From contig JAMDHS010000029.1 in NCBI GenBank assembly GCA_029717555.1, positions 62,001-126,000 on the forward strand: a DNA stretch of 64,000 nt, written 5' to 3'. A program made the position numbers and the translations under genes. The DNA comes from Peribolospora baueri (taxonomy: Eukaryota). The notes under the pieces were generated by a model. That model searched no databases. It saw only the letters and a list, made by a program, of their open reading frames with translations, and was not told the origin of the DNA. This document shows positions 1 to 30,300 of the stretch, piece after piece (positions within the stretch are counted from its first letter, which is position 1; every line of letters starts with the position of its first letter).

Positions 1-363
1 GGCTTTATAAATCTCCCAGAGCTTTCCCTGAAAATCGTCCACTTTGCTGACACTACCCCCAATTACGCTCTCCAGAAACTCCTCATCGGAGGCCACGCGT
101 GCGTAGAGTTCGTTGTATAGCGGTTGGAGCTTGTTGGCAAGCTGGAAGAGATAGAAGGGGTAGGGCGTTGGAAAGAGGGCGAACGGCGCGTGGATGACGC
201 TGCCGGGGTCGGGAGGAGAGGAAGCGGAAGCGGGAAGCGGACGATAGACGAGCCCGTGCGAGAGCGCCCAGTCAGTTTCGTTTTGAGCGAGTGAAGCGAG
301 CTGCGCGGACGTCAGGGTGGGAGGCCATGGCGGGAGCTCGCGAGTAGAGATTTGAGAGGACAT
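1..363 (-). CDS. GSH2: Glutathione synthetase (eukaryotic type), 5' part; gene continues beyond the window's left edge
   Basis: Manual minus-strand translation from ATG at 363: MSSQISTRELPPWPPTLTSAQLASLAQNETDWALSHGLVYRP...SVIHAPFALFPTPYPFYLFQLANKLQPLYNELYARVASDEEFLESVIGGSVSKVDDFQGKLWEIYKA. The WPP, DWAxxHG, HAPFxLxPxPF/YP, QPxYNELYA and VDDFxxxLW motifs are typical of the N-terminus of fungal glutathione synthetases. The frame is open to position 1 with no in-window stop, so it is not in the ORF track. Confidence 0.88.
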   Translation of the reverse strand, partial: MSSQISTRELPPWPPTLTSAQLASLAQNETDWALSHGLVYRPLPASASSPPDPGSVIHAPFALFPTPYPFYLFQLANKLQPLYNELYARVASDEEFLESVIGGSVSKVDDFQGKLWEIYKA

Positions 364-548
364 TGTGAAACTGGTTGGGAGGGAAACGAGGTAGTGTAAG
401 AAAGGACGGCGCCGTCGTTGCTGGTGGTGAGCACACGACGCCCAGGGCAGCTCCCTCTCTCACTTTCAGCGTGGCGAGGTCGGAGACACAGGAAGGTTTA
501 CCTTGTCGCACCGCTCTTGGCCTGCCTGTCTGCTCTTCGTGCAAATAG

Positions 549-579
549 CGTCGTTGTCGTTGTCGTTGTCGTTGTCGTC
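549..579. repeat. (GTCGTT)n hexanucleotide microsatellite in the GSH2/cysteine synthase intergenic region
   Basis: gtcgttgtcgttgtcgttgtcgttgtcgtc read directly. Confidence 0.9.
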
Positions 580-678
580 CGGCGTCGTCGGCTGGCCGTC
601 GTGCTCGCCATTCTCCGTTCCACCATCGTCCTCCCCCTCTCGATCATTTTCTTCCGCAAGTCCGAGTTATCTCCGTGA

Positions 679-686
679 TATATAAA
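679..686 (+). promoter_or_regulatory. Putative TATA box of the cysteine synthase gene
   Basis: TATATAAA about 105 nt upstream of ATG 790, followed by a pyrimidine-rich tract, in otherwise GC-rich DNA. Confidence 0.5.
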
Positions 687-789
687 TGTGATCTTCGTTC
701 CGTCCGTCCGGTTCTTCCCTTCTTCATCCACCCTTCCTCGCCTCCTCATCACCGACACCAAGCCGGTGCTGAGATTTTTCTCGCTCACC

Positions 790-2437
790 ATGGCGTCCGC
801 GTTCCGTGCTTTCACCACCTCTGCCCTCCGCAAAGCGCAGTTGGGCTCCGTCGCCGCCGCTCATGCCAAGCCCGTGAACGGTTTCGTCGGCGCCGTGGGC
901 AACACTCCTTTGGTGAGTTGAAGCTTTCTTCATTCTATCCATGTTGCACGGAAACACGATGCTCAATTCGGCGACTGTAACCGCCACTACGCTTTCAGGT
1001 TCGTCTCAAGAAGCTCTCTGAGGAAACCGGCAGCCAAATTCTCGCCAAGGCAGAATGGATGAACCCGGGTGGGAGCGTCAAGGACCGGGCCGCGCTGTAC
1101 ATCGTTAAGGACGCCGAGGAAAAAGGTGAGCTCACGTTGCTTTGCCGTATAATTATGGGTTGGACATTCCGTCGCCAACTTCCGCTGATTGTTCGGTTTG
1201 TCTCTCTGCTCCGACGCCTCTCCTTCTGTGCCCCGTCTCACCGCCCGGCCACGCCACTCCTCACAGGCCTCATCATGCCCGGCGGCACGGTGGTCGAAGG
1301 CACGGCTGGCAATACGGGTATCGGCCTCGCGCATGTTTGTCGCTCAAAGGGTTACAAGTGCGTCATTTACATGCCCAACACGCAGTCTCAGGAAAAGATC
1401 GATTTGCTCCGCATGCTAGGCGCCGAGGTGTACCCAGTTCCTGGTGAGTGAGCCAAGCGCGGGATGAGCCAGCGAGAAATTCCCGTGTGAATTTGTGTTC
1501 TCACTCGCGCACCCAACGCCTTCTGTCCTTCCCGTCCCTCCCCTTCTCTCGTCACCCTGATTCGCAGCCGTGGCGTTCGACAACCCCCAGAACTACAACC
1601 ATCAAGCTCGACGACACGCTGAGTCCCTTCCGAACGCCGTGTGGACGAACCAGTTTGACAACACCGCCAACCGACGCGCGCACATCGAGACGACCGGTCC
1701 CGAAATTTGGGAGCAGACAGGTGGCAAGGTCGACGGTTTCATTTGCGCGACGGGAACGGGAGGTAGTTTGGCGGGAACTTCGAGGTTTTTGAAGGAGAAG
1801 AGCGATGGCAGGGTGCAGGCTTGGCTTGCCGACCCGCCGGGGAGCGTTCTGCATAGCTACCTGCAGAGCGGAGGCAAGTTGATGGAGAGGAGTGGAGGCA
1901 GCATCACGGAAGGTGAGTTGTCATTGAGGCCGCGAAGGTCCGGCTTGCCTCGTCGTTCTCCCAGTATTGACCCGTCCGTTCTTGGCTCACCTAGGCATCG
2001 GTCAGGGTCGTGTCACGGACAACCTCAAGCCGGACATCAGCATCCTCGATTCGTCGCTGAGCATTCCGGATGAAAAGTCGATCGAGATGGTGTTCCGCCT
2101 CCTCGATGAGGAAGGGCTGTACGTCGGCGCTAGCTCCGCGCTCAACGCCGTCGCCGCGTATGAGATGGCCAAGGCGATGGGTCCGGGGAAGACGATCGTC
2201 ACTTTGCTCTGCGATGGAGCCTACCGGTGGGTCGATGGCTGCAAGGTGTTAGCCAGGCGGCCTTTGTTTACCGAGTTTGATCCGCTCACTTTGCTCCTCT
2301 CTGTTCGTCTCCTCCATGCGCCGTCGGACGTCGACTACAGGTACCAGAACAGGCTCTTCTCGCGCAAGTGGCTTGAGAGCAAGGGCCTCGAAAAGGCCAT
2401 CCCACCGCACTTGCAAAAGTACATCGTTCTCGACTGA
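790..2437 (+). CDS. Cysteine synthase (O-acetylserine sulfhydrylase, CysB/Cys11-like), multi-exon, with probable mitochondrial targeting peptide
   Basis: Exons give [25 protein letters not shown] (PLP lysine motif), [75 protein letters not shown]. Introns are GT-AG. N-terminus [15 protein letters not shown] resembles a transit peptide. Confidence 0.95.
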
Positions 2438-2760
2438 TCGGATCGTCTTCGCGCTCCTCTCCCTGCATGAAACCTACCTTGTCTCCTCTCCGCCGTTCTC
2501 GTCTATCCGTTCTCCTACATCACTAGATAGTTACTGGGACTTGTTCGGCAGACTTCGGCTAGGCAATGGAAGAAAACCGTTCGGGGATAACCCTAACTTG
2601 TTGCGCCGATCGGGTGTTCGCCTTCGGGTACTCGGCTCTGGCGATGTGACTGTGGGGCGGAAGAAGATTCGAGTCGATACCTTCATCCGCATTGACTTGC
2701 GAGGAGACGACGACGAACGACGACGTCTCGTCATTACCTTCACAACCTTCTTCTTCAACG

Positions 2761-5493
2761 ATGCCGACGACCACCACCACCTTTGTTCAAGCGGACGTCG
2801 GCACACCCGTGCCCTTCGTGCCGCACGCTGTCTCCGTGTCTCTGCCCACTTGGAAGGACAATGTCGACTACGAGGAGGGTGCACCGAGGATCACAGAGCT
2901 TATGCAGAACGGGTATCCCAGGTTCTTCATTCATAAGAAGATACAGGAGGTGAGCGGTCCCCTTTCGGAGCTCACGGTGTTTGGCGCGAGGTGGGAACTG
3001 CATATAAGAGGACCGCAAGCGAGACGCCTCCGAGTCAGCTCGGCCTGAGCTGGGAGTTCCGTTTTGTGTGGTTGGTAGGCAGGCAGGCTTCTGAACAAAA
3101 GCTAAACGCATTTTCGCGTCCCTTTCGGCCTCCTCTATTGACCACACGCAGCTCGCCGCCGTCTGCGAAGCCAAGTTCGCCTCACCATCCGAGAAGTGTT
3201 TGCTCGTACCTACGTCCCGCATCGCCGAACGATGTCGCGACTTCATCCGCGCACAGAGCGCCGAGCCGCTCAACGTCTCTATCGTTCACTTCCGCATTCT
3301 CACGAACAATATCTCTGATGCCCCGTCTAGGACGTCCCCTAAGACCTCGCCAGATCCATCTTGTACCTCCGCGCCTTTGTCCAGAGAAACGAGCGGTGGA
3401 GGCGCACCCGCCTCTTCCTCCTCGACGTCTACGACCCGTCCCTCCTCCACCGTCTCTCTCCACATCGTTCTCTTTCCCTCTCACGCCTTTCCCCTTGCCA
3501 AAGCTTTCTGGCAACACACCGGAGATGGCATCAGTAGTCGCATGGCGGAGCGCTGTCTCGAGCTTCTCAAGGCGGCCGAACGAGAGGAGCAAGGGAGGCA
3601 GAGTGCCAACGGAACCCATTCGGTGGCATCCAGTTTGAACGGTTCGGGTATTGGGGCGAATGGGAATGATGTTGGCGGTATGGGCGACACGGACGTAGCG
3701 GCGACGAGTCGAGCGAGAAACTATTCGCGGAACCGACATTATTCGAAGAAGGGCTTCCAAGTGCCTGGCCCGGGCAAGGACGCTTTTCCAGCGCTCGTCG
3801 CTTCGCCCTCTCTCCCCTCCTCTCGGCGCGGCTTTTCCGCTAGTCATCCTACCTTGACCATGTCCGATGACGACGACCTGGACGAAGGCAAAGAGGCGGC
3901 CGATGACACTTTCACGTCGGACCATTCCGTCTACGTCGAGGAACGGTACGGCCGCAACCTCCCGCTGAGCTCCGCTCCGCTCGCCAAGCGCGCCCTCCGT
4001 CGGCGGATCGCCGGCGTTCTCGCCGCGGACGCGTTTTCGAGCGGCTCCGCGTCCACACATGCTCCTGAAGCGTCGCTCGATTGCATGGCGACTACGAAGG
4101 AGAGCGCGAGGGGCGTGGCGGAGGTGACAGAGGAAGACGTATTCTTGTTCCCGACCGGCATGAACTCCATCTGGCATGCCCATAGGGTGGCTAGGATGGT
4201 TGGCGGCGAGGACGTAAAAAGCATATGTTTCGGGTGAGGAGTCCGGCCATGGCCCTTGGATGTGAACGCTCCAGCTCTACACAAGCACACGAATTCAGCA
4301 TTGACGCCGTGCGCCTTTCTGGTCCCCTTCAGCTTCCCCTACACCGACACACTCAAGGTCCTTCAAAAATGGGGCGCTGGATGCGTCCACTACGGGCACG
4401 GCCTCGACGCAGACCTGGACGACCTGGAGGCCTACCTGTCCATCACACCGCGCCATGCGGACTCCAAAGCGCCGGCGCCGTTCCTCGCGCTCTTCTGCGA
4501 GTTCCCCTCGAACCCGCTCTTACGGTCGCCCAACCTCCGACGCATAAGGGCGCTCGCGGACAAGTACGGTTTCATCATCGTTGTCGACGAGACGGTGGGG
4601 AACATGGTCAACGTCGAGGTGCTCCCTTGGGCGGACATTGTCGTTTCGAGCTTGACCAAAGTGTTCTCCGGCGACACCAATGTCATGGGCGGCAGGTAAG
4701 GCGGATGACTGCACGTTCTGTTTTCGCCCGAGGGCCTCGCCTCGCGTCCTAGAATGACGTCCAGCTCGCGCTCACACCTATCTTTCTTTTGCATACCAAC
4801 GACCGATCGGTATTCGTTCTTGCGCACGATCGTACAAAAAGCATGGTCCTCAACCCGCGCTCGTCGCACTACGCCTCGCTACGGACGGCCATGGCGAAGC
4901 ACTACGAGGACGCGTACTGGCCCGAGGACGCGATCTACATGGAGCGCAACAGCCGGGACTTTGTGGGCCGCGTCCAGCGCATCAACGCTAACACTGAGGC
5001 GCTCTGCGATCGGTTGAAGGCCGCTGGCGGCGAACGCGGGCCGACGGTGATCAAGGCGGTGTACTATCCCAAGTACGAAACGCCAGAGCACTATGACGCC
5101 TGCCGACGCCGTCCCGCCAGCTCGGCTTCGGCTTTGTCGTCGTCGTCGTCGTCTTCTTCTCCTCTGGCAGACCAGGCGGCCGTTTGCCCTTCTTCAGGAG
5201 GCTACGGCGGCCTTTTCAGCGTCACCTTCGTCTCCTCCGCCGCGTCCGAAGCGTTCTTTGACGCCCTGGACGTCTACAAAGGCCCGTCCCTGGGCACCAA
5301 CTTCACCCTCGCCTCCCCCTACACCATCCTCGCTCACTACGCCGAGCTCGACTGGGCCGCCGGCTTTGGCGTCGAGAGGAACCTTGTGCGGGTCAGCGTG
5401 GGCATGGAGGACAAGGAGTGGCTCTTCTCGACGTTTGATAGGGCCGTCGAGGCGGCGCAGAGGGCGCATTCGCGCCGTCTGTCGGACGCCTGA
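2761..5493 (+). CDS. STR2: Cystathionine gamma-synthase (Str2/MetB-like, PLP-dependent), multi-exon
   Basis: [99 protein letters not shown] (PLP lysine), [24 protein letters not shown]. Confidence 0.93.
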
Positions 5494-5628
5494 CGCCTGA
5501 CAGGATGGGCGCTTACACCGTCGTGCATGAATGAATGTTTGAATGAACAGGTCAGTGTGTCCCGGTCCGCGCGTGCATACGATCGTTTCGAACGAGAAAG
5601 ACGGAAAGTGTCCGCGACGTGAAATCGA

Positions 5629-5670
5629 CGCGACTGCGTGCGACTGCGACTGCGACTGCGACTGCGACTG
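5629..5670. repeat. (GCGACT)n microsatellite between the convergent CGS and NAS genes
   Basis: cgactgcgactgcgactgcgactgcgactg read directly. Confidence 0.9.
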
Positions 5671-5938
5671 CCTGCCGTTCTAATAAACTCGGTATCCAAT
5701 GCTCGGTATAGGACAGTTGTGAGGCTCGAACATGCGGAATCAAAGACGGAGGGAGGGACGGAAAGGAAGCCAAGCCAGCCTACGCGGGGAGAGGGTGGCA
5801 GGCGGGAGGAGGGAGAGGAGAGATATGTGTCTGCGGCGCGGCTCTTGGGTGGGTGTGTATGTGTATGTGTGTGGTGTGTGAGAGGGGCAGCGACCGGACC
5901 GGTGACTAAAGATGGGAGGCCGTCGCGCCGCCATCTCG

Positions 5939-7605
5939 TCAAATGCGCCGGGCGACGATGCAGCTGTTGATGACCTGTCGTCGGGTCGGGGGATACGGAG
6001 CGAGGGTCAGCACATCGGCGAGTCAAGACGCGACGAGATGCGACAAGACGAGAGGAGACGAGACGAGATGAGACGAGACGATGGGGACGGATCCTCGCTT
6101 TCACCTCGTTCCGCGGATGCAGAGTCGCTTCTACGACAAGCCTGCCTTCACCTGCACTTGCGACGGCCGTCTCGCGTACGCGCGGGTAGATAAGCGATTT
6201 TGGACCGTCGGCAGAGCTGTCAAGCCGCAGAAGAGGGGCTAGGGTTTAGTAGAAACCCCAACATCTCCCCCCCCCCCTTCCCCCCCTCTGCTCACCGAAT
6301 TAGCAGCATAGCCCCAGGAGACATATGCGTGGCGACATGGCGTACACACTCGTCCTTCTCCTCAGCACGGAGGCCGACGAGCGCGGCTAGGAAGATGGTG
6401 TCGGCGCGAGCGATCATCGAAGGGTCCAGCGCGGCGGCCGCCGAGGTATGGAAGGAGAACGGCGCCGGGCTTTTCTGGCTCTGGCTGGGGACGAGCTCGG
6501 GCGCCACGCGTTCAGTGAGCGCTCTGGATAGGGAGAGCGCTTTGAGGTCCATGTCGACGTTTGTGACGGACCACGCGGGGCGAGAGGATGGGGCCGGGAA
6601 TGGCAAGGACGGCTCGTCGTCGCCCGCGTCGCCCGCGTCTTCGACGTCGTCGTGCCCGTCAAAAGGCACGAACGCGGCGGCGCCGGCAGGCAAACCATCT
6701 CCGACCTCTGCCTCCGCGCACCCCCACCTGGGCGCGATATGATCGGTGGCGAGGATCAAGCTGGTGAGAGGGAGCGGGCCACTGCCAAGGAAGAGGACAT
6801 GGCGGGGGTCGGCGCCTAGACCGCGAAGGAGGTGGTACTCTAGGCGGGTGAGCTGAACGTAGTTGGAAAAGTAGGGGAACGAGGCCACCGGGGTCTCGGC
6901 GAGGGGGACGGACGTCGACGACGGCGGAGGAGGGGAGGCGTCCTGAATGACACGGAGCGCCCACCACCTTTCGAGGCGCGACTCTGCCTCGGCACAGAGA
7001 GAAGGAAGCTCCCTCACGGCGGCTTCGAAAGCTGTTCGATCTCGGTCCGTTGTCGTCGTCGTGGGAAATCGCCCGTGGGCCATCTCTATCGTCTGTGCCG
7101 CCATCTCAGCGTCGCCTTGGCCGTCGGCGTCGGCGTCGGGTCTGGTGACGAGAGCGACGAGGGCGGAGAAGAGCGCGTTCGTCTCCGGTCCAGGGTCCAA
7201 GCTGGGCAGGGCGAGGATGAGGTGATGAAGGCGGACCAGCGCCTGGCGCAAGTCTGACCGTCCGTCCTGGTCTTCAGCCGTCGGTCCGGTCGTACGACCG
7301 TAGCCGGAGCGCGGCTGTCCATGCGCACGTACCGGGTGCTCTCGTGATCGCCGACCGTCCATGCCTCGGTCGTCGTCGATCGCATCAAGATGGGTGGGCT
7401 CGCTGGGCGGCGTCGGAAGCTGGACGTTGCGTTCGTCGGCGTAGTCGTCGTCGTCGTCGTCGTCGTCGTCCGCCTCGGCGCCCAACACGACCAAGCTTCG
7501 GTCGCAGTCGAGGTCGAAGCCGGACGGGGGCGGCGGCTTGACCTGGCTGGCGGCGACGGCGAGACAGGCGTTGGCGTTACGGGAGCGTGGGAGAGAGGAG
7601 ACCAT
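5939..7605 (-). CDS. Nicotianamine synthase (NAS family); 3 exons 7605-6296, 6216-6105, 5974-5939, about 485 aa
   Basis: LPSLxPxxxxNALFSxLV, AESRLERWWA, FPYFSNYVQLTRLE, FLGSGPLPLTS, NVDMD and FLAALVG...EKD. After hand-splicing: LLIRSADGPKSLIYP and HPRNE|VINSCIVARRI*. These match NAS family motifs (FPYxxNY, GSGPLP, FLAALVG, RSAHGxRxxLYP, HPxxEVINSVxVAR). Both introns are GT-AG and keep the frame. Confidence 0.92.
6025..6080. repeat. Imperfect (GAGAC)n pentanucleotide repeat in NAS intron 2
   Basis: agacgcgacgagatgcgacaagacgagaggagacgagacgagatgagacgagacg; a similar array lies at about 10700-10730 in a GPI10 intron. Confidence 0.75.
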
Positions 7606-8525
7606 TTGGAATGAGGGGAGGTCAGACTACGGGCGAGCTCCTGTCTTTCTTTCGCTGCGGAGACGAGGGAGGGAGGGAGAGGCGAAACGGGACGGGGCTT
7701 GGTGGTGATATAGTTAGTTCAATGGAGGTATCGGCCGATGTGCATCGAGCGAGCTGGCCGAGTGGAAGGGGGTGAAGAGGGGTCGGCCGGCTTAAAGAGC
7801 TGCGTTGTGGCGGGTCGGAAGGGAGCCGAGGGAAGGAGGAGGAAGGAGGAGGAGGCAAGAGGGGCGGCAATGAAGGGGCGAGACGAGGCGATACGGGAAA
7901 TTCACATTTTCCACCGAGCTGAGCCGTTTTTGGTGGCGGAAGCCTATTGTGCAGAGGAGACGGCACCTGAGCGTTCACCAACCCGAGGGGGGGGGGCGCG
8001 AGCGGAGAGGAGGGTGAGCGATTTACGAAGTGCGATTGCGTTTCCGTCCGTCTGTCTGTCCGTCTTTCTTTATTCTTCCTTCACCGGAAGGCGGATGCGA
8101 GTGGGAGAATCCGGCGAGGACGAGGAAGGGAGCGTGTGTGGATTTCAAATCGGCCGGGTGGAGGTGGGAAGGCGAAAGAAACGATAAGCGACGATGATTA
8201 GATGACGATCGCATTGTTGCCGCAGCACCAGCCGCAGCCGCAGCAGTCGCTCGAGCGCCCGCTCCTTGCCGAGTGAGTACCTCGGCGGTGACGATCACCG
8301 CGACGGTCGTCCTCCGCTGGAGAAGACGGACGGAGACTCACGATCGAACTCGCACAACGCTCGCACTCACTCCCACCCTCGCACATCGTTGTTTCGTACA
8401 CATATCTTCTCCACCCGCTCGCCAATGATAATCCCGGATCCTGTCGCCATCGCCCGCGCCCGCGCTCGCGCCCACATGGGCATTCGTCCGTCATCGTCCT
8501 TCGCTCACCCACTCTAATAACTGAT

Positions 8526-11236
8526 CTAATATTCTACATCCATCCCTTCGCCACGCCCACGCGGCCCGCCTCCTCGCCAAGCCAGGACGACCACGTCGCC
8601 CCTCCTCCGCTCGTCCTCGTGGAAATGAGTGTTCCACACTCGCAGACGCTCCTCGTAGCCTCGAGAACGGAGGAGAGAACCCACCGTCTCCGTCTCCGTC
8701 TCCGCGTCCGCGTCCGCGCCCGCGCCCATGCCCATGCCCATGCCCGTAGCGCGTCCTTTTCGCCGAGTCACGTCCAACAGCGTCTCGAACACGACCAGGT
8801 GGGACGGCCACGTATGTCGCCAACCGAGGTCGTCCTCGTCCTCGTCCTCGTCGTCTTCGTCTTCGTCTTCGTCTGCCGTCGTCGTCGCCCTCTTTCCTGT
8901 CGACGCGCCGACGACGACGGCGGGCGATGGCGGGAAGGTGGCATCGACAGAGGCGGGAAAGCGCTCGATGATATAAGCGTATGGATCTGCGTAGAAATAA
9001 TCAGACTGGTCTTTGTAGCTAGGAGAGTCGCCGCTGTCGCGTCGCATCGCAAGGACGACGAGGAGAACAGAGAACGGGAACGGGAACGCCGTCGAGTGTG
9101 AGCCGATCAGTGCTCGCGTCCAGCGGCCAAGGACCAACAAGGTCGAATCATTCGCCCCCCTGGATCTCACACTCACCTTAAACGCGGCTCGCACCCAATC
9201 TTCCACAGCCGCCCGCCCTCGCCGCTACCTCCCGTCCTCTCACTCCACCCCACTTCCCCCTCCCGCACCTCCAGCTCTGGCCAGTGCAGATGGCTCTGCC
9301 ATGGTGTGCTGTGACACGGCATCAGGAAGCCTACGCTCCGCACCTCGCCCCAGCCTGACCCTGACCGTGACCTTGAGCTGGCGCTCTCCGTGCCGGAAGG
9401 GCGGAGAGAGCGAAGGGCGTAGAGCACCTCCACTTGCCCGCGCTGGTGCTTTCCAACGAGGTACCATGCCGGCGGGAGGGTGGTGAGAAGCAGAGCGACC
9501 AAGTGGCTCTTCTTCAGCTGGATCCCCATCCCCATCCCACTCCGCCCCCGCCCCCGCCCCTTCCCATCCCTTTCCACCAGATGACCGCCCGCGCGAGCGG
9601 CCAAGATGGAGAAGACCGGCACGAGCGGCTGGAGGAAGCGAAACTCTTTGTGAGAGAGCAAGCTGTAGCAGAATACCGTCCAGAGGCAGAGCTGTGCGAG
9701 CGTGCGCAGGCCTTTGTCATCAGCAACCCTTCCCTCTTCATTTTCACCGCCGCCCTCTTTTGCTCCTCCCGGTAGCCCCCTTCCCGTTGCTCTCAACGCC
9801 AAACCCGCTCCGAGCGCGACGAGCGGCAGCTGCGTCCAACAGAGCACGGGTACGCCTTGACTGAGGTACCAGTGCCATGGATTGGCACCGTAGAAGACAG
9901 AGACAGAGTGCAGGACGTTTTGAAGGAGGAACGGTAGCGGCGTGAACGTTGGGATCAGGCGGAGATGGGTGAAAGGGGACGGGGATGGGGAGGAGGAAAG
10001 GGAGAAGAAAAGGGTGTCGAGGACGAAGGTGAAGGCGGCGGAAAGCGCGCTTCGATGGGGTTGGACGTGGTAGAAAAGGACCAAGGCAGGGGTACACAGA
10101 ACTAGGGTGAGCAGACGCTCCCGGGCCATGCAATGCAACCTACGCTGTGCTCACCCGACGAGGACGACGACGGTCAATGCTCGTACGACCGCTCTCCACG
10201 TTTGCTTCGCCCATCGCGTCCAGAGGAGTTTGATGCCGAGGAAAACCCACAGCAGAGCGTTGGTAGGCCGCATGAGGCAAGCCAGCGAGGCGAGGCAGAG
10301 CGACGTGATGAGCGAGTCGGCACGCCAACAACGTCTCCCGCCATCGTCGCCGTGTCCTCCTTCGATCTCCTCGAAAGGCCAGTAATAGAGTGCCATGACG
10401 GTGAGCACGGCTTCGGCGTTGTTTGAGAAAGTGCGCGTGGCCGTGTATAGACCGTACAAGGACGAGTGAGCGAGGACGAGCTGTGAGCGAGGGGGGAAGG
10501 CCTTAATGTCAAACTACGTGGCCGGGGCAGACGGAACGGAAGAAGGACGACGAAGGATGATGAGCCAGGACGCTCACAGCTGTCAACGCTCCCTCGCGTC
10601 CGCCCAAAAGTCGAGCGGCCAGCTTGTAGGTGTACAGGTCACCGACGGCGGCGAGGACGGCTTGGACGAGCCGAGGGACGAGGACCTTTGTCAGGGAGCG
10701 CGACGAGACGAGACGAGACGAGATGAGAGACGGGGAATGGGGGGAAGAAGCGAAGGTGCTAGGTCAGAGGACGTTCGGTCAAGCTGAGGTTCCCCCGATC
10801 GTAAAGGGCCGTCGCTCACGAGCAAAGGCGTTTGATCCAGTCCGAGAACGTGGAGCGCCCAATATCCCGGCACGAACAGGACAGGCCAGGCGGGACTCCT
10901 GATGGGCCCGCCCTTCAACAACGTCGCCCACTGCTGCCCTCCTCCGTCTTGTCCCGTGGCCCTGCCATCGCGCCACTCCCAAGTGCGATAGCCGTATCCG
11001 AACACGATCCTGTGCGCCACTTCGAGCGATTGGAAATACTCGTCCGGCTGAAAGAAGGTGCGCGTGAGGAAGGCAAGGAGGAGGCGTAGAAGGAGCGTGG
11101 GGAGGAAGACGGTGCGGAGGAGGGATGGGGCAGACCTGTTGGCGGACACCGGCGGCGAAGAAGAGGAAGAAGAAGAAGGTGCGCCTGTTCGGTCGCGCAG
11201 AGCGGCAGCGGCGGCAGCAACGGGGCGCTTCCTCAT
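8526..11236 (-). CDS. GPI10: GPI mannosyltransferase 3 (PIG-B/Gpi10), multi-exon
   Basis: TRTFFQPDEYFQSLEVAHRIVFGYGYRTWEW, PIRS, TRTFSN..E, RPTNALLW, SVFYGANPWHWYLSQG, HKEFRFLQP, GFLMPCHSTPWQSH, CEP, YKDQSDYFYADP, WPSHLVVF, HFHEDERRRGDV. Confidence 0.93.
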
Positions 11237-11954
11237 TGCATCGTCCCCGCGGTCTGGTCCGAGAGGGAGAGGAATGGAAGGCGAAGGAGAGGTGCCTGTC
11301 TCTGCTGAGCGTCGTGCTGAGAGTGGTGCTGGAAGGAAGAACGCAAGCCAAGCCCACCAAGTGGGGGACGACTTTTGCTCGATCATTTGTTCATTCGCCA
11401 TCCTCACTCGCGGCAAGGGGAGAGAGCGTCAAGCTGCGTGTTGTATGTACATCAACCCGTTCTCGCCATCCTTCGAGTCGGATATAATAAAGACAGGCAT
11501 GGACGACGACGGCGTTCGATATCGTCGATGAGACGTCGATCCTGCTCTGGCCGTCTTCCGCTCGAGTCGCGCATTGATTATGCAAACAGACTCGCACAAG
11601 CAATTCCACCTCCCCTTCACCTTATTACCACCATCGCCATACACACCGCGTTCGCCACGACGCCCACCACCACGGCTTACGACACAGAACAAGCCCTTCG
11701 GCACCGCTCCTTTCAACCCGCTTTCCTCCAAACCACTTCCAAGGCCGCAACGGCGCCTCGTCGGGCGTCAGCGTCAGGGCCAAGCAAGAGGCCGGCAAGC
11801 AGGCACGGATCGCTCACGCCTGGCTTCCAGCCCGACCTCTTGTCGCCCTCGTCAACTGTCTTTGCCAGTTTCGCACTTGGCCGTCGTCATCGCCGACGAC
11901 GTCGCTTCCTTCCGTCTTGAACCATTCTCTCCGCTCCACACCTCTGCAGCCTCC

Positions 11955-14760
11955 ATGAGCCCCTCATCTGCCGCCGCGCCTATTACGGCCACTCCTCCCC
12001 AACCTGACACCTCGTTCCTCGTCGACGGTAAGCTCATCGACGTCTCCGACGTCTCTTTCTCTTTGCGACTGGCCACCACTAACGCTGTCGCCGTTGCCGC
12101 CGTCAAACTCCTCCGACAGACGCATCTCCTCCCCCTCTGCAACGACCGCTCAGGAGCGACGGCCTCAGCGTCTCGAGCGTCGCAGGCCAGCCTGCCGTTC
12201 CCTCCAGGCCCGGAAGCGCGCAGAGCGTTCGGATCAGAGTGGAAAGGCCCGGCCTGCCTGCTGGCTCCGATGGGGACAACAATGGGAGTGCAAACGGCAG
12301 GGCGACGGGCATAAGCGCTCCTGGGGTGGCGTCGGCGGCGACGGGCACACGTAGGATGGAGAGTAGCACGACCTACGCCAAGAGGACGGGCGGGAGCATC
12401 GAAGGTGGACTTTCTTTGTGTCACCCGCTACGGTTGCCCGTGCTACGCTGCTGTTCGACCAAACTCGTTTTCACTGATTGGTTTCCCTCGTCCCTCTTCG
12501 TTTTTTCGCTCCCACGCGCGCACACAGACGCCGAGCGCTCCCCACTCATCGCTAACGTCTTCTCCCCTCGCCCGACGCGGTACACCGAGCCGACGCTCTT
12601 CTCCCGCCTACGACTGGAAATCTCCCAGCTCATCGCCAACGCCATCTCCTCCTCCTTCCTCATCCTCGTCGTCGTCTGGGCCCTCACCGTCCGAGCTCTC
12701 GCCGCCGTCCCGGCTTCCTTTGTCCCCCGCATCGTTCAAGAGAGGGACTGGGACGACCGAACAAGGTGGAAGAAAGAGGCGCTGGTCAAGGACGTCAGGT
12801 ATTACGCCACCAGCTGCGGGTTCGAGATCGTCAATGAGACGGTGGAGACCGAGGACGGGTACCTCTTGCGCGTCAATAGAGTCGTCTGTCCCGGGCACAA
12901 GATCCGGGCCGACAGGAGGGGTGAGTGTGTGATCGAGTGCTAGCTCTGTCGGGTTGGCGTCCTTTCTCTTTAATAATCTCTTTTCACATACTTCTCTTCT
13001 CGCCTTTCCTTCATTCCTATCCTTTTAGGAGGCTACCCCGTCCTGATAATGCACGGACTCTTCCAGTCCTCGGGTTCGTTCGTCACCTCCGAGGACCGTT
13101 CCCTGGCCTTTTGGCTTGCCAGGCACGGCGGTTACCAAGTCTTCCTCGGAAATAACCGTGGCGTGTTCGACATGGGCCATAAGCGGTACTCGAGGAACGA
13201 CCCGAGGTTTTGGGGTGAGCGCTGGCGTCTTTTTGTTCGAGAGCGCCAGTGTGGGACGCGCGCAGTCTGACCGTTTCTTTCCGTTTCATCGGTCATCAGA
13301 CTACGACATCCGAGAGCTAGCAAAGTATGATCTCCGCGCCCTGGTCGAGTACGTCTGCAAAACGACGGGCTACGATAAGGTGAGATGCGACGGCGCGGGT
13401 CATCAGCCGACCGGAATGTGACGCACCGTCTTCTCCCCGCGTACCTGACGACCGCCCTTGACTCGTCTTCTAGATCGCTTTCATAGGCCACTCTCAAGGC
13501 AACGCCACTGCCTTTGTCGCTCTCTCCCGTGGAATGGTTCCCGAATTGGGCGAAAAGCTCTCCATTTTTGTCGCCCTAGCACCTGCCGTCTACGCCGGAC
13601 CCCTGACGAGCTGCTTCCCTTTCACTGCCTTGAGGAGACTGGATTGGAAGAGATGGAAGCGCATCTTCGGTGGGTTATCCCTCCCATTTGCCTGTATTTG
13701 CGCATGGAGAAAGGAATGGATCGCCTCCCCATCAAAATCACTCACTTCCACCCGTCTCCCATCTCCGCTCGTCCTTCATCCATTTCGTAGGCGTCCTCGA
13801 CTTTATCCCGCTCATGCGTGTCTCCTACGATTGGACCCCGGCGCTGCCGTATGCTTTGTTGGGCTACCAGATGTTTGCATTCCTCTTTGCCTGGACAGAC
13901 GCTAACTGGTGAGCCGGGGCCCATCTCTCTGTGTTTCGACAGGTCGGTTGACGGCCTGATCCATTTGTCCCGGTCTCTTGGGTCGTTCCGTTCGACTTGA
14001 TTCTGCGCTTTCCCCCGCCCCCCCACGTCCCTTCCGCCAGGCTGCCCCGTCGCAAAGCCAAGATGTTCCGCTTCACGCCCCAACCCGTATCCTCCGCCTC
14101 CATCTTCTGGTGGGCAGGCAAGAGGGGCTTCGCCTCTCGTGGCTGCATCCTCGATCCGGACGAGGACAGGTGGTTCGATCGACGCTTCCCCCCACTGGCG
14201 CTCTACTCTGGCGGGATGGACTTTTTGGTCCTCACCGAGCCGCTGTTGAAGAGGTTGGAGGAGAGGGAGAAGGACGTCAGGTTGGTGAGGGCTGTCCGGC
14301 AGGAGACCGCCGAGGTGAGTGTACGATGCCCGTGGCACCGTTAGGTGATGACGGAAGGAGAGAAGCACGATTCCTCCGGAGAGGAGCCACATTGCTTCCC
14401 ACCGTTCGGGTTCGGGGAAGAGCTCGTTGCGACGCAAAAATTTCGACATGTCTGATGGTTGAATCATTCCAAGCTCACTTTCATGCACCTCCTTCCTCGC
14501 CCCCGTCGCCGCCTAACGCCAGCACTGTGACCACTTCTGGGCAGCAGACTCTGTCGAGTGGTGCTTCCACACCATTTTGGGTGAGTTGCAGTACCATACC
14601 TCTTCATCCATTTCTGCGGACTCTGCTCACTTCTGCCTCCCATCTCCGCACCTTTCCCCCTCTTCGTCCTTTCCTTCCCACAGAGGACATTGAGAACACC
14701 CGTCCTCGCTTTCCGGAAGAGGAAGAAGCGAGCAGGATCGAGCCCGCAAGAGTGGCATGA
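11955..14760 (+). CDS. Alpha/beta-hydrolase lipase / sterol esterase (Tgl1/Yeh-like), multi-exon
   Basis: VETEDGYLLRVNR, PVLIMHGLFQSSGSF, SLAFWLA..GYQVFLGNNRG, DYDIRELAKYDL, nucleophile motif IGHSQG (about 13484-13501), FVALAPA, GGMDFLV, HCDHFWAAD. Confidence 0.88.
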
Positions 14761-23363: not shown

Positions 23364-26300
23364 TCACTCGTCGGCCCTGATCCCTATTCGACACCTAAAC
23401 ATGTCTTCCTTCAGTTTCACCACCTCCAACCAGCACTTTTCTTCCCAGCTCAACCCGAGCTCCTTATGTCCCGCCCCAGGCGCCGTCGCGGTCGCGCTCT
23501 TGCTGCTCGACGACGACGAGAGAATGAGACCGGGAAGGGGGAGAGAGGAGCGTGGACCGCTTGGCGGCTTTGCTGGGATGCCCGGGCCGGCGGTTCCCGA
23601 AGGGGGAGCGGTGGTGGGGTTGGGGTTAGGGTTCGGGTTGGGCGTGTTGCTGAGAGGCGAGTCGGCGGGGGCCGCTGGAGGGCGGCGGCGCGGGTTCCGC
23701 GGAGGGAGAGCAGGAGCGACGTTGCCCGTCGGCGTCTTCCTATCCGACTCCGTCGCCGTCGACGTGTCTATCGACTCGGAAGAGGGCGTAGCGATCGTGG
23801 TCGTCACCGTAGGTCCCGCCTCGGTCGAGGAGGAAATCTCGAGCGCGCCGGCGGGCCCTTCCGCCGCTGGTTCCTGAGCCGTGGCGGTGGCGGTGGCGGT
23901 GGCGGTAGCAGTGGCAGTGGTCGTAGTTTCCACCTCGGGAAGAGCGGCGGAAGAAGAGGAAGGGGAAGCCTCAGCAGAAGCAAACATTGCGTCTTTGTCT
24001 TGCTCGTCCTCACTGCCATCCACCACGTTCGGCTCTTCTTCCTTTGCGGACGCGGACAAGGTTTTAACGTCATCTTCTTCAACGTCTCCTTCGTCGCGGC
24101 TGCCGTTGCCGTTGCTGCGGCCGTCGACTTCACCGTTGCCCGCCGCGCCGTTTGCCTCGGCGGGGGCGGCGGGGGCGGCGGGAGTAGTGGAGCAGGGAGG
24201 CGGAGCGCTAGATGGACCAGCGTCGGACGGGGACGGTTGGCTCGGAGCCGTCGCCGATGTCGACGTCGATCCAGCCCCAGCCCGTTGTTCCTCGTCCCAA
24301 GGCCCTCTCCCACTCTCCCCGTCTCGATTTCCAAAAGCCCACTTGCCCTCCAAAACGATCCCTCGTTCAAGAACCCTCACATATCCCCAAAACTCGCACA
24401 CGCTTCGCAATCGACGTAAGCAGTGGTGCGGGCAAAGGAGGTACCTGTTGGTGGACGATTCGGTGATGCGGAAGATGTGTGTAGGTATCGGGTGGTGGGG
24501 CGGCGGTGGGTTTGGGGAGGTTGGAGAGAGGGCGGGAGAGGAGAGATCTGCGTCGTTGTTGTCTGCCAAGGAGGATACGGGGAGGAGGGAGGGTGCGGAG
24601 GACGAGTGGGAGGAGGAGGCGACGGGGTCCGACGATTTCCGGCCGTGGAAAGGATTGATGGTGCTGGAGAAGGAGGGAGTCGAAGGGGATGATCCGCTGC
24701 CACCGCCGCTGCCGTTGCCGCCGACGCCGAGCTTGAAAGACGAGAAAGAGGAAATCAAATTGCTCCTCATCTTGCTTCCCGTTCCAAAGCCGAGCGTGGA
24801 AGAGCCGGCGGAGGTGGGCTCATTGGAAGAGGAGAGGTCGGTGGTCGAGCCAGGGGCGGAAGTGGGATGGAGAACAGTAGAGTGGGAGAGCTGGGCGTTG
24901 GCGACGGGTACGTTGAGTACGGATGTGCCGCAAAGAGCACAAGCGGCGGCGGGCAAGGCGGCGGCGGCACGGAGGAGGTCTTCCTCCTTCATGCCCGGCG
25001 CGGCAGGCTCGACGACCAACGTTCCATCGAGAATAGCGCTGTTCACCTGTCTCCTCGTGAGCCAGTTGAGGCCGGGTGCTACGTCGAGGCGAAGAGTGGG
25101 TTCGGTATCCTCCTCGACGGCTCGCTTGATGAAAGGGAGTGAGGACTGAGACGAGAGCTGGACGAGCTGCTCGGCGTTCGGAGGCAAATGCTGAGTGGGC
25201 GAAGGCGGCGCGGAGTCGAACGACGGCCGCGCATCGTTTGCCCCGATCCGATAGGAAGAGGTGGGCACGGCGACGTAAAACGGGGCGAGCTGACCTCTGA
25301 GTTTCTTTAAGTGAGCGAGGAAGGAGACAAACTCTCGAAAGGGGACGATGTTGATCATCAACCCTTGATACGGATCGCCCACGTCGCGGTACAGGTAGAA
25401 GCCGCCGGTGCCGGCTCGAGACTGAGGACCAGAGAGGGTGGAAAAGGCGCTTGCAGAGCCGGGAAGACCAGGAGAACCGGGAAGCGATCCGGCTCGCAAA
25501 GCAGAGCGGAGCAGGAGGGCAGAGAAGCGGCGTTTGGGTGGTGGAGCGGCGGCGTCAGCGCCGTCGCCGTCGCCGGCTGGCTGTTCGGCGTCGGTTGGAT
25601 CGAGAAGGGCGTCTTCCATGGTTCTCATATCCTGCTCAGCCGCCTCAAGGCGCTCCTTGAGCTCCTGCATGGTCCTCTGCTGTTCCCTAATGAGGCTCTC
25701 GGTGTCCCTCAAGCGCTCCTGCATCTCCCTGCTCTTCTCCTCCGCCCTGTTCTTCTCCAAACGAGCGGCGGCGACCATGTTGTTGGCCTCGGAGAACAGG
25801 TTGGCGCTCAGGTCGTCGAGCTCCTTCTCGATCGACGCTTTGTCTGCCTCGGCCTTTCCTCTCTGCGCCGTTTCCTCCACGAGTCGCTCCATCATGCGCT
25901 GCATCTCCGCGGACACGTGGGCCTTTTCGACGAGCAGGCCGGTATTGAGGGCGGCAACATGCTCTTTTCGCTCCGTCTCCAGGGCCGCAATCCTGGTTCG
26001 ACTGGCGTGAAGCTGGGTGACGGAATCGGATACGTCGTCCTCGAGATCGGAGACACGCTCGAAGGAGCGCACAAGCTTGGCATTGAGGCCCGTCACCTGG
26101 GCCGTCAGATCCGCGACTTGGCCTCTCAACGATTCGACCTCGACCTCTGCTTGGGCGGCAGCCGAAGGGGGTTCGGGTTCGGAGGACGACGGGTGGGGGT
26201 CGTGCGGCGGTGATGGCCGGTCGTCGTCGTCGTCGTCGTCCCCTTGGCCGGCCCCCTCGGCGCCGGTGGCCGGTGAAGAAGCGGCGGTATGGCCATCGCC

Positions 26301-26456
26301 GGGCGAAGCAGACTCGGCGACGCCGTTGGCCATCGCTGGAGACCCGGTGGCCGCGGCGACGGTCTCGTCCGTCGCCCCGTCTGTAGAGACCTCTGGGAGA
26401 GCCGCCGGGGACGCCGTGCCTGGTGCGGGGGCGGTAATTTGAGTGGGATCGGCCAT
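23364..26456 (-). CDS. SEC2: Rab guanine nucleotide exchange factor Sec2
   Basis: Single 1030-aa ORF with coiled coil and IEKELDDLSANLFSEANNMVAAAR (Sec2p domain), EEDTEPTLRLD.APGLNWL.RR, CALCG, LC..CL.RLRSVCEFW.Y, W.EV..LKE.MF..RIG. Confidence 0.93.
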   Translation of the reverse strand: MADPTQITAPAPGTASPAALPEVSTDGATDETVAAATGSPAMANGVAESASPGDGHTAASSPATGAEGAGQGDDDDDDDRPSPPHDPHPSSSEPEPPSAAAQAEVEVESLRGQVADLTAQVTGLNAKLVRSFERVSDLEDDVSDSVTQLHASRTRIAALETERKEHVAALNTGLLVEKAHVSAEMQRMMERLVEETAQRGKAEADKASIEKELDDLSANLFSEANNMVAAARLEKNRAEEKSREMQERLRDTESLIREQQRTMQELKERLEAAEQDMRTMEDALLDPTDAEQPAGDGDGADAAAPPPKRRFSALLLRSALRAGSLPGSPGLPGSASAFSTLSGPQSRAGTGGFYLYRDVGDPYQGLMINIVPFREFVSFLAHLKKLRGQLAPFYVAVPTSSYRIGANDARPSFDSAPPSPTQHLPPNAEQLVQLSSQSSLPFIKRAVEEDTEPTLRLDVAPGLNWLTRRQVNSAILDGTLVVEPAAPGMKEEDLLRAAAALPAAACALCGTSVLNVPVANAQLSHSTVLHPTSAPGSTTDLSSSNEPTSAGSSTLGFGTGSKMRSNLISSFSSFKLGVGGNGSGGGSGSSPSTPSFSSTINPFHGRKSSDPVASSSHSSSAPSLLPVSSLADNNDADLSSPALSPTSPNPPPPHHPIPTHIFRITESSTNRYLLCPHHCLRRLRSVCEFWGYVRVLERGIVLEGKWAFGNRDGESGRGPWDEEQRAGAGSTSTSATAPSQPSPSDAGPSSAPPPCSTTPAAPAAPAEANGAAGNGEVDGRSNGNGSRDEGDVEEDDVKTLSASAKEEEPNVVDGSEDEQDKDAMFASAEASPSSSSAALPEVETTTTATATATATATATAQEPAAEGPAGALEISSSTEAGPTVTTTIATPSSESIDTSTATESDRKTPTGNVAPALPPRNPRRRPPAAPADSPLSNTPNPNPNPNPTTAPPSGTAGPGIPAKPPSGPRSSLPLPGLILSSSSSSKSATATAPGAGHKELGLSWEEKCWLEVVKLKEDMFRCRIGIRADE

Positions 26457-27312
26457 GCGGTAGCCGAGGGAGAAAGGGGCGTACGACGGCGCAGCAGAGG
26501 TGGCGGTGGACTAGCAGAGCAAAGGGAGGCGAGCGTGAGAGGAGGGCAAGCGACGAGCTGAGATGAGAAGGTTGGAGGGTGCGACCTGGTCTGACCAGGT
26601 AGGTCGTTCGTTTCGCGAAGAACGAACGCCCAACGGAGCCTCGCTCAAGGTCGCACATGGGTGAGCCCAACTCGTGCTGCGGCAGCTGGGACGCTAACGC
26701 CGCGTTTCTCCGCGTTCGGCGTCTGCGTCGGCTGGGCGAGTCAGTTGGCCGGCGACGAACAGAAGGCAATGGACGAGGTGGAGGACGACGACGAAGACGG
26801 CGACAGCGAAGGCGACGACGACGACGACGACCACCACCACCACGAAGACAGCGGCGCCGGCGGCGGTGGACTGACACCCCCGAGTCGATGGCCGTCCGCC
26901 CTGTCGGTGGTACTCTATTCTACGATCTCGCAGCCGGCTCACACCGACCGACCGACCCACGCGCTCACGAGTCGCCTCCGGCGCGGCGGGCGCGGCCACT
27001 CGACGCCTCCATCATCGCACGGACGCTATCCCTTCTTGCGTGGCTAGAGTTAAACGGACGGAAGCAGCGACTGACGGAGGCTATCTATCCAGCGCTCCGA
27101 GCCTGTCCAGTGCCAGTGCGTTGGACAGGCGAAGGCGGAGGCAGACACGGCGAGGGCGGAGAGAAGGGAAAAGCGGAGGAAAGAAGGAAAACCGACGTCG
27201 TCGTCGTCCAGCGCTCGGTCACGAGCTACACGACGACTCACGTACATTGCAATTGCAATTACAATTGCATTCCTCTAATCGCCTCCTCCTTCTTCCCACC
27301 ACCATCGACGAC

Positions 27313-30300
27313 ATGGCCGCACCGGCCTCCAGACCCCCCCCTCCTCCTCACCGGGCCTCCTCCGCCTCCGCCTCCTCCTCCTCCACCCTCCTCCCCTCCC
27401 CTTCCTCGCCCTCCACCCCCACCCTCATCGCGCCCCCGCCACCAGCCTTTGCGCGCCCCATCCCACCTCGCATCTTCACCTCCGGTTTTTACCCTCCTCT
27501 CTCCCAGCCGAATACCAACGGCGACGTCTTCTCCTCTCCCGACGCCACTTCCCACGCTAACGCCACTCAGCTCCATGCATCCTTCAAGACAGCCGACGTG
27601 GGCGTGAAGGGGACCGAGCGCTTCGCTGTGGATGCCATGGCCACCGGCGCCCCCGCCCCGGCGAGCAATTTGGCAGTCTCGTCCTCGTCTGGCTCTCACC
27701 CATCGCCCGACCACCGTCGTCCTTCCCATCGTCCTGCCCGCGAACCCCATCCCGCTCTGCCCCTCTCGCGTTCTGGCTCGGCCGCGGGCAGTGGGCGCCT
27801 GACGCCGATGAGCTCAAGAAGCAGTATCCGAAGCCAGAGGAGCTGGTCCGTGAGTGTCTCGCCCTGTCACGCACTGGCTTGCCCCCCCCTTCATCTGTCT
27901 TTTTCGCTCACCGGATGCTCCTCTCGCTCGTCGTCTCTTTGTCGCGATTCGACGTGCAGGAGTTTGAGGCTTCCTCGATCAGCCCCCTTCCCTCTCCCCT
28001 TATCGGCGATGAGGAATACGACAGGGATCACCTCTTTCCTGCGACCGGTCGGAGCAGCTGGGAATCAAAGCAGAGCCACGACGAGGAGAGACCATCTGCG
28101 ACGATGCCCTCCTCTCGCACCAGCGCCTTCTTCAACGCCTCCTCCTCTGCCGTTCGACCTCCACTCACCCTCGCCTCCGTCTCCTCCGACGTCTCCTCCC
28201 CTGCCTCCGCCTCGACGTCTTCCTTGAATTCCGCCTCGTTGCCCTTCTTCTCAAGTCCCCTCGAAGGCCTCCCCACGCCCTCCGGCGATGCGCATGCGCC
28301 CTGGTCCTTTCGCATGCCTTCCACTTTTTCTCCGGCCGCCAGCAGCGCCACGCGTATCGCCCTTGCCGTCGCTGCCGGTATGATGCGACAGCCTAGCGAG
28401 CCTTCCTCACCGGCTCTTGTCGTCCCGGCGTTGTCTTCGAGGCACGCGCGTTATGCTAGCGACGGCGACACCTCGAAAATGAAACTTGGTTCGGACGCGG
28501 TCGAAGCGGAAGCGGATGCCGCGCTTGCAGCAAACTCGCCTGCGCGAGACCTCCTTTCCTCCTCGCCATCGTCAGTGATGACGGGCAAAAAGACACGCGA
28601 TTTCTTCTCCACCGACTATTCTCCCTCTTCGCCCTCTTTACCTCGTCCGCCTCCCGCCGTTCCTCTGTCGTCATCGCCACCATCAAGGCAGCACTCCGGG
28701 CGCAGAGATGTGTCTCCCTCTCGAGGAGGCGGTCTCTCTTCCTCTCCCTCGTCTCTCCGTTCCAGCTCGCTCCCGTCGTTGAGACCGTCTTTCGACCGAA
28801 GGTGGACGACCGCGTCCGAAAAGCTCGATTTACCCTCGCCCGTCCCCGAGGAGAATGGTTTGCCCACCTCTGGACCTCCGAGCGCAACGCCGACGCTAAC
28901 GGCCGACGAGAGGGAAGAGAAGTGGCCATTTTCAATTTCGACGACCGACAAAGCGGCCTCGCCCGTTGTTGTCGCCGCCGCCGCTTCTACATCATCCTCT
29001 TCTCCCGCTACCACCACGCGCCCGGTGCTCTCCGTCACTACCACCTCCCTTTCCCAACGTCCTCTTCCAGCCCCAGTGCCTTTCCCCACGCCTTCCGCCG
29101 CTCCGTCCTTATTCCAGTCTCAGGCCGCGGTCGCCTCGGTGTCGAAGACCCCCTCTGACTCCGCTTCCGGTGGCGCTCCCGCACGGTCGTCTTCGTCTTC
29201 GCCTTTGACTTCCGCCGCCTCTGCCACCACTGTCGGCACCGTCGAGACGCTGGGCAGTGGCACGGCCAGTACCGGCACGGGCATTTCTGCCAGTACGTCC
29301 AACACGCTCGAGAGGGCCACGTCTCGGTCTTCTTCTCTCGCTGAAGTCGATGGGGACGTCAAAGCGGATCGAGTCAAGAGGAGAGAAGATGGACGGGTCA
29401 AGGACAAGAAGGTCGGAAGTGCGTTTGCGGGCGTCCACGACAACGTCAGAGACGAACCCAGAGAGGACGACGAAGAACGAGAACAGGGAACGGGCTCAAA
29501 AGACACAGCAGGGTTGAGCCGAGTCGGCGCTTACCGCATCGTTCGCGCCCTCGGCGTCGGCGCGTTCAGTCGCGTCGTTCTGGCGCGACTGGAGGGGGAG
29601 GGGACGTCGTCGAGGAATGGGGAAGACGTAGGAACACGGACGGTGGCGCTCAAGATGATCGATAGGGCGCCTTGTGAGAAGCACGAGAGGATCAAGGTCG
29701 CGTGGGTGAGGGAAGTCGAGGTCTTGAGGGTGAGTGGGCTGAGCATTCGAAATGTTCTACGGACATGCCGACGACGCTGATCATGGTCGGTCGGTCTGCT
29801 CAACAGCACCTCGCCCACCCCAACCTCACTCCCCTGCTCGACCACTTCTCCACCCCTTCCTATCACGTCCTCGCTCTCGAACACGTCGCCGGCGGAGAAC
29901 TGTTCGACCTTTTGGAAACGTCTCATGACAAGCTCTGTTGCCATCCTTGGCTCGTCCGACGCATGTTCGGAGAGCTTGCCGGGGTCATAGGCTGGCTCCA
30001 TCATGTCGGCGTCGTGCACAGGGATGTGAAGCTCGAGAGTGAGTGCATCACGCATTTGCTTGTACCGCCACCCGCCTCCAACAAATTGATACGATTTCCT
30101 TTTTCTTCGCGTTTCGTTTCGCCCCTATAGACATCCTCCTCTCCCACAACCCGTTCTCTGGCGACGACGATCCCACGCCAGCGACCGTCCGCTCGCCGCT
30201 CATCAAGCTCACCGATTTCGGTCTCTCCCGGTTCATCGACTTTTCCTCGCCTCTCCTCGAAACGCGGTGCGGCTCGGAGGAATACGCGGCGCCAGAGTTG

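Follow-up and report, generated by a model that had tools for sequence, protein, structure and literature searches.

Adjacent genes for glutathione synthetase, cysteine synthase, cystathionine gamma-synthase and nicotianamine synthase in Peribolospora baueri: a neighbourhood most likely restricted to its lineage

Four consecutive genes, for glutathione synthetase (GSH2), cysteine synthase, a Str2-type cystathionine gamma-synthase (CGS) and nicotianamine synthase (NAS), occupy the left end of a 64,000-nucleotide stretch of Peribolospora baueri DNA (GenBank assembly GCA_029717555.1, contig JAMDHS010000029.1, positions 62,001 to 126,000 of the forward strand; this whole stretch is the window, and all positions given here are counted within it). 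We lean towards reading them as four ordinary housekeeping genes in a lineage-restricted juxtaposition, with no dedicated co-regulated chelator pathway. Judged from their sequences, all four are canonical orthologues of a Ustilaginomycotina member and not specialised paralogues, an assessment that follows from the identities to homologues, the colinearity of CGS and the conserved columns of NAS. Their adjacency is most likely a derived arrangement restricted to this lineage, since the orthologues that could be placed in other Ustilaginomycotina are dispersed. In such a non-dedicated neighbourhood there may be, at most, ordinary co-expression of neighbours arising from the 426-bp divergent promoter and the 323-bp tandem spacer. 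The predicted activities nevertheless belong to one network. The cysteine synthase would make cysteine from O-acetylserine and sulfide, and the Str2-type CGS would combine cysteine with O-acylhomoserine to give cystathionine, leading toward methionine and S-adenosylmethionine (SAM); GSH2 would add glycine to gamma-glutamylcysteine, and NAS would trimerise the aminocarboxypropyl groups of three SAM molecules to form nicotianamine. This is the pathway logic that a first-pass annotation of the window had proposed (cysteine to glutathione, and cysteine via CGS to methionine and SAM and on to NAS), and it was right, as were the gene identities and orientations on which it was built.

Gene models were spliced by hand from the sequence and then checked by script. 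The DNA is about 60% G+C over the first 12 kb of the window and the genes carry introns, all of which are of the GT..AG type, and all models (the GSH2 fragment, cysteine synthase, CGS and NAS) remain in frame. GSH2 is present as a fragment on the minus strand (1..363), comprising the start codon at 361-363 and the first 121 codons before the gene runs off the left window edge. A divergent intergenic region of 426 bp (364..789), with a TATA-like TATATAAA near 680, separates its start codon from that of cysteine synthase, which lies on the plus strand at 790..2437 and encodes 366 amino acids in six exons (790-912, 999-1125, 1267-1443, 1568-1912, 1995-2226 and 2341-2437). After a spacer of 323 bp between stop and start on one strand (2438..2760) follows CGS (2761..5493, plus strand; 761 amino acids; exons 2761-2949, 3152-4233, 4333-4695 and 4842-5493). 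The CGS stop faces the NAS stop across a convergent 3′ spacer of 445 bp (5494..5938) that contains a (CGACTG)n-like repeat near 5640-5670. NAS itself is on the minus strand at 5939..7605 and encodes 485 amino acids if 7605 is its start, in exons 7605-6296, 6216-6105 and 5974-5939. Hence all four genes are present, in spliced form, where the first-pass annotation had placed them, and its distances of 426 bp, about 320 bp and about 450 bp agree with the 426, 323 and 445 bp measured here. It had also stated that nothing lies between the four genes, which holds for tRNA genes, Rfam families and other open reading frames (ORFs) with a Pfam family; over 1-12000 there are 0 tRNA genes and 0 Rfam families. 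The Pfam scan was made exon by exon and took in 4 of the 6 cysteine synthase exons. As a separate observation, cysteine synthase and CGS form a tandem pair 323 bp apart for which co-transcription is conceivable; widespread polycistronic transcripts are reported in basidiomycetes (PMC4503453).

The evidence for a lineage-restricted arrangement comes from related fungi, in which linkage was judged from contig sizes (bp) and locus tags in protein tables, as a proxy for physical separation. Cysteine synthase and CGS are on separate contigs in all four Ustilaginomycotina where this pair could be checked: Violaceomyces palustris (contigs of 61,748 for cysteine synthase and 51,108 for CGS), Tilletiaria anomala (57,865 and 242,168), Pseudozyma flocculosa (959,883, PFL1_03002, and 1,484,245, PFL1_00893) and Sporisorium graminicola (821,971, EX895_004726, and 753,310, EX895_001489). 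GSH2 of Pseudozyma flocculosa is on yet another contig (657,210, PFL1_05149), so that three of the genes are on three separate contigs in this species, and in Tilletia maclaganii CGS (2,309,548, V8E36_001427) and GSH2 (2,352,128, V8E36_000701) are likewise apart. Thus every related species in which at least one pair could be checked, 5 of 5, has the genes unlinked; the pairs were drawn from GSH2, cysteine synthase and CGS only. Pseudozyma hubeiensis was left out of this comparison, as its cysteine synthase row (strain SY62) and its CGS row may stem from different assemblies.

Metagenomes gave the same picture. Among 80 loci anchored on cysteine synthase, none carried GSH2, CGS or NAS at E<=1e-5, and the 7 eukaryote-like loci among them contained no credible GSH2, CGS or NAS even at E<=5; in these 7 the cysteine synthase match has 59-79% identity, and at least one side has a flank of 4 to 10 kb. 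Their Pfam neighbours were condensin, NUDIX, P450, Rad23/Arf-like, LepA, RWD, mitochondrial carrier and citrate synthase. The first-pass annotation had named absence of linkage in related species, together with uncorrelated expression of the four genes, as an outcome that would speak against its cluster, and absence of linkage is what we found, in the five species as well as in the 80 loci. On these comparisons the linkage is not conserved beyond background, and the gene order is kept only here and in a sister organism, called organism B below. As a side observation, two of the marine or environmental eukaryote-like contigs (L001 and L002) both have a condensin Cnd3 gene upstream of, and on the opposite strand to, an intronless cysteine synthase; this context is a different, locally conserved cysteine synthase neighbourhood in another fungal lineage.

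Organism B is a sister about 98% identical to this one. One of its contigs is colinear over 558-6079 with 102 substitutions, a stretch that takes in cysteine synthase, CGS and the 3′ end of NAS, and a second contig covers 1-572 with the start of GSH2, the two overlapping by only 15 bases. Because the divergence is only about 2%, the kept order is expected whatever its cause. The stretch from about 6080 to 9071, with most of NAS and its upstream side, is uncovered by organism B contigs at >=85% likeness while its flanks are covered; this is a contig gap and carries no weight. The same contigs bear on the suspicion that the genes were merely joined by misassembly. No evidence for misassembly of the four genes was found, the colinear contig comes from a different organism, and a Logan contig spans 1-7430 with 0 differences, although this contig is probably of the same source and hence not independent. 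The probable source contig has 29,807 bases, of which 7,469 coincide with the window, and so reaches about 22 kb past the left window edge. We regard an assembly artefact as extremely improbable.

The identity of each enzyme is a second line of evidence for housekeeping genes. For cysteine synthase, PF00291 was found on exons 2-5, where the matches together take in profile positions 11-295 of 295. The 120 fungal proteins among the matches listed for exon 4 share 78-85% identity with it; they are mostly named 'cysteine synthase (1)' and come from basidiomycetes and ascomycetes alike. Moreover, the full model aligns end to end with its counterparts in Violaceomyces, Tilletiaria, Pseudozyma flocculosa and Meira at 80-84% identity, needing 1-2 gap openings, and is 77% identical to the Penicillium protein. 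The best PDB chains are the cysteine synthases 5i7w and 5jis, and CBS matches are weaker. These comparisons indicate that the protein is the orthologue of fungal cysteine synthase 1, a predicted O-acetylserine sulfhydrylase of PLP fold-type II, and not CBS or another PALP enzyme. The motif 'GGSVKDR' in exon 2 contains what we take to be the PLP-binding (pyridoxal phosphate-binding) lysine motif 'SVKDR'. The PALP fold is common to the window protein, the fungal 'cysteine synthase 1' of the Neurospora and Aspergillus type and the bacterial 5i7w and 5jis; from the fungal type the window protein shows no notable difference. Five introns interrupt its gene, and a mitochondrial presequence is putative. 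Because its N-terminus is basic and free of acidic residues, the enzyme is probably mitochondrial.

The GSH2 fragment matches PF03917 at 1.1e-26 (93.9 bits, cut-off 25) over profile positions 2-96 of 363, and its best PDB match is yeast GSH2 (1m0t, 1.6e-11). Full-length proteins named glutathione synthetase in Cryptococcus, Malassezia, Pseudozyma flocculosa and Microbotryum share 48-62% identity with it. An Atlas search with this 121-amino-acid fragment gave sub-threshold, phage-like matches only (0.84), the fragment being too short for the search to inform.

NAS exon 1 matches PF03059 at 9.3e-35 (120.7 bits, cut-off 27.1), and the first three Atlas feature matches listed for NAS are NAS clusters with scores of 0.92-0.93. 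In an alignment of 13 plant, fungal and bacterial NAS sequences, exon 1 keeps 28 of 28 invariant and 8 of 8 nearly invariant columns. The kept invariant columns include E208, E212, F243-P244-Y245, N248, Y249, G274, G276, L278-P279-L280, D351, L406-G411 and K417, and the conserved blocks EAE..LE, FPY..NY, GSGPLPL and LAALVG are present. The long ORF at 6292-7626, taken alone, ends NAS too early, because two small 3′ exons encode the family-typical C-terminus ...HPxxxVINS..VAR; the donors are GTGAGC and GTGAAA and the acceptors AG. A search of solved structures by sequence with NAS exon 1 gave no match, archaeal NAS included.

NAS also has peculiarities of its own, and it diverges much faster than the other three genes. 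Exon 1 has no more than 32% identity to its best relatives in the homologue search, those of Phenoliferia and Acaromyces ingoldii, and the full model is 28-36% identical to the three homologues compared, reaching 36% over residues 120-485 with the Acaromyces ingoldii NAS, with which it has local features in common. An N-terminal extension of about 118 amino acids (7252-7605) contains nine consecutive Asp, and translation could really begin further in, at the in-frame Met of codon 81. Moreover, an acidic insert of about 45 amino acids (about 6560-6700) lies in the SAM-binding domain; of 12 aligned homologues, 10 lack it and the remaining 2 have shorter, unrelated inserts at that place. The 'core' type of NAS occurs in fungi, mosses and plants, with the Neurospora crassa enzyme as one example. 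PF03059 and the invariant columns are common to this type and the window NAS, whereas the N-terminal extension and the acidic insert set the latter apart. NAS is described as widespread but patchy across fungi in the consulted part of PMC12454661, a part that gives no fungal neighbourhood.

CGS deserves closer comparison, as its PLP fold occurs both in the housekeeping enzyme and in relatives from secondary metabolism. PF01053 was found on exon 3 with 40.7 bits (cut-off 27), and exon 4 alone reaches 24 bits, which is under the cut-off. Basidiomycete proteins that go by the name cystathionine gamma-synthase or 'probable STR2' share 48-58% identity with exon 4. Residues 2-757 of the full model are colinear, at 47-50% identity, with 4 Ustilaginomycotina orthologues of 698-790 amino acids, and this colinearity takes in the N-terminal non-PLP region; exon 2 holds a long low-complexity linker, as in other Ustilaginomycotina CGS. 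A conserved N-terminal region and an 'SLTK' lysine motif are readable in the model, both of which we presume to be those of the family. Hence, in its PF01053 PLP fold and its colinearity with 'probable STR2' proteins, the window CGS resembles the Str2/Met7-type fungal enzymes.

The best PDB match of CGS exon 4 is CndF (8zif, 6e-32), an enzyme of gamma-substitution in secondary metabolism, and fungal secondary metabolism employs both cysteine-synthase-like and CGS-like enzymes. One could therefore imagine a specialised metallophore cluster, in which neofunctionalised cysteine-synthase-like and CndF-like paralogues together with NAS and a GSH2-like ATP-grasp ligase build a chelator; it is established chemistry that NAS, like gamma-replacement enzymes, transfers an aminocarboxypropyl unit, which would fit such a scheme. 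Against this scheme, CndF tops a list of 5 PDB matches in which no chain bears the name cystathionine gamma-synthase. CndF is a 568-amino-acid relative from secondary metabolism, whereas the window CGS is a 761-amino-acid housekeeping orthologue with a long linker, and nothing in it suggests C-C bond-forming chemistry. Both PLP enzymes are housekeeping orthologues by their full-length identities in relatives (80-84% for cysteine synthase and 47-50% for CGS), and the GSH2 fragment matches true glutathione synthetases. GSH2, which we take to belong to the ATP-grasp superfamily, is three genes away from NAS, and no ligase gene stands head-to-head with NAS: its upstream side consists of about 1.1 kb of non-coding sequence and then GPI10, which runs on the NAS strand with its 3′ end towards NAS, and the ORFs in 7625-9224 are without a Pfam family except for GPI10. 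Because of this orthology, specialised metallophore chemistry, whether CndF-like or SbnA-like, was rejected, and a specialised pathway is essentially excluded; we consider it very improbable.

The reading as juxtaposed housekeeping genes has to be weighed against the improbability of such a neighbourhood. We simulated 100,000 genomes of random gene order with 7,500 or 6,500 genes, of which 30-80 were counted as linked to cysteine, methionine, glutathione or SAM (assumed numbers). A run of four network genes appeared in 0 to 9 of the 100,000 genomes, with an analytic expectation of 2e-6 to 1e-4 per genome, and a run of three in about 40-900 of them (about 0.04-0.9%). For a single genome the run of four is striking, but the estimate carries no correction for the many pathways and genomes surveyed. 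Several points thus count against our preferred reading. Random order would seldom bring four genes of one metabolic network together, and with odds this low pure chance is hard to accept unless a large look-elsewhere effect of the survey applies. The genes are also tightly spaced, with one divergent promoter in common. Moreover, the observed non-conservation is compatible with a cluster that was assembled recently and selected, and the contig proxy shows separation in the species compared, the closest relatives being outside the sample.

These points favour the alternative that the four genes form a lineage-specific, selected cluster, in which the cysteine node, its sinks GSH2 and CGS, and the SAM consumer NAS were relocated under common chromatin or promoter control. 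Under this alternative, metal or sulfur stress could raise thiol and nicotianamine chelators in concert, and cysteine synthase and CGS might be co-transcribed. The connection of the pathway follows from established biochemistry, and the dispersal in the five other species makes the arrangement a derived one that would have needed more than one relocation of related genes, although derived and ancestral states are not rootable from the species compared. Organism B keeps the same order, but at its small divergence this support is trivial. No sign of co-regulation was obtained, and the metal-tolerance purpose is pure inference. We hold the selected cluster to be a tentative possibility, and it keeps this standing mainly because random order would so rarely give the run and because the spacers, of 426, 323 and 445 bp and with a divergent promoter, are short. 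Clusters of primary metabolism exist in fungi, as in the DAL genes of yeast, the GAL genes and nitrate assimilation. The adjacency of genes from one network and the lineage-restricted arrangement are alike in these clusters and here, whereas the linkage of the window genes is not conserved in the relatives compared and their co-regulation is hypothetical.

Co-regulation was approached through motifs in the three upstream regions (364-789, 2438-2760 and 7606-8400). The CYS3-type site ATGRYRYCAT, with 1 mismatch, does not occur in them, and the window as a whole has 15 such sites where 12.4 are expected. Fourteen further regulator motifs, covering Cbf1, Met31/32, Gcn4, Yap1, CRE, the Zap1 ZRE, GATA, CCAAT, MRE, Mac1 and Aft1-like sites, are absent from the three regions or occur at background. 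The regions have no 8- to 10-mers in common, and the three 7-mers that they do have in common are within the range of shuffled sequences. Because the motifs are those of distant (ascomycete) regulators, and may not apply to this fungus, these scans are a weak negative, and this weakness is a further point against the reading that we favour. The right side of the neighbourhood, which is the readable one, adds nothing to a selected cluster: to the right of NAS the window contains no further sulfur or metal genes, and no transporter, regulator, gamma-GCS or SAM synthetase. Hence the proposal of the first-pass annotation that the four genes are a co-regulated cluster supplying metal chelators finds no support in any test that was run.

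Searches of the literature on nicotianamine and its synthase with fungi, Ustilago, basidiomycetes and sulfur enzymes, and on fungal metabolic clustering, found no paper describing a cluster of this kind. Two papers on Sporisorium mention, in the parts seen, nicotianamine transporters only. By term search, the words methionine, cysteine and glutathione do not occur in two overviews of fungal metabolic clustering (PMC10218983 and PMC4256263), and therefore the present make-up is not among the clusters that these overviews discuss. If the selected cluster were true, its make-up would have no described precedent in fungi, as far as these searches reach, and it would be a rare case of primary sulfur metabolism that is physically organised in a eukaryote. 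It would then be a sulfur-amino-acid counterpart of the yeast DAL cluster, with chelator supply tied to sulfur or metal status, and would link nicotianamine, whose fungal role is little studied, to the supply of cysteine and glutathione. It would also offer a genetic handle on how a basidiomycete yeast divides its sulfur flux between thiol and aminocarboxylate metal ligands. If instead the adjacency is a local accident, the region is an ordinary one, and its four well-known enzymes simply add one routine member each to their families.

The next gene to the right of NAS is GPI10 (9176-11428, minus strand; PF03901), and the remaining 56 kb of the window consist of unrelated housekeeping genes, namely GPI10, a lipase, malate dehydrogenase, an LYR protein, Sec2, a kinase, PNO1, SHQ1, a CDC14-like phosphatase and EMG1. 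Repeats, either short tandem ones or of low complexity, lie at 545-600, 5640-5670, 5844-5888, 6030-6085, 7431-7482 and 8830-8886; they are of (GTC)n-like, (CGACTG)n, (GAGACGA)n-like and (GTC/GAC)n types and fall partly between genes, partly in introns and partly in acidic runs of coding sequence. Contigs from the two sequencing runs break at these repeats and fit several places there. Three long open frames, at 27561-29777 (plus strand), 46440-47801 (plus strand) and 25690-26919 (minus strand), encode 739, 454 and 410 amino acids and match no Pfam family at 1e-4 or 1e-5; in G+C-rich DNA such as this, part of them may not be genes at all, and part may be genes peculiar to the lineage. An ORF at 52709-53080 on the minus strand contains an integrase zinc-binding domain (PF17921, 9e-09) and is probably a retrotransposon remnant, the sole trace of a mobile element in the window.

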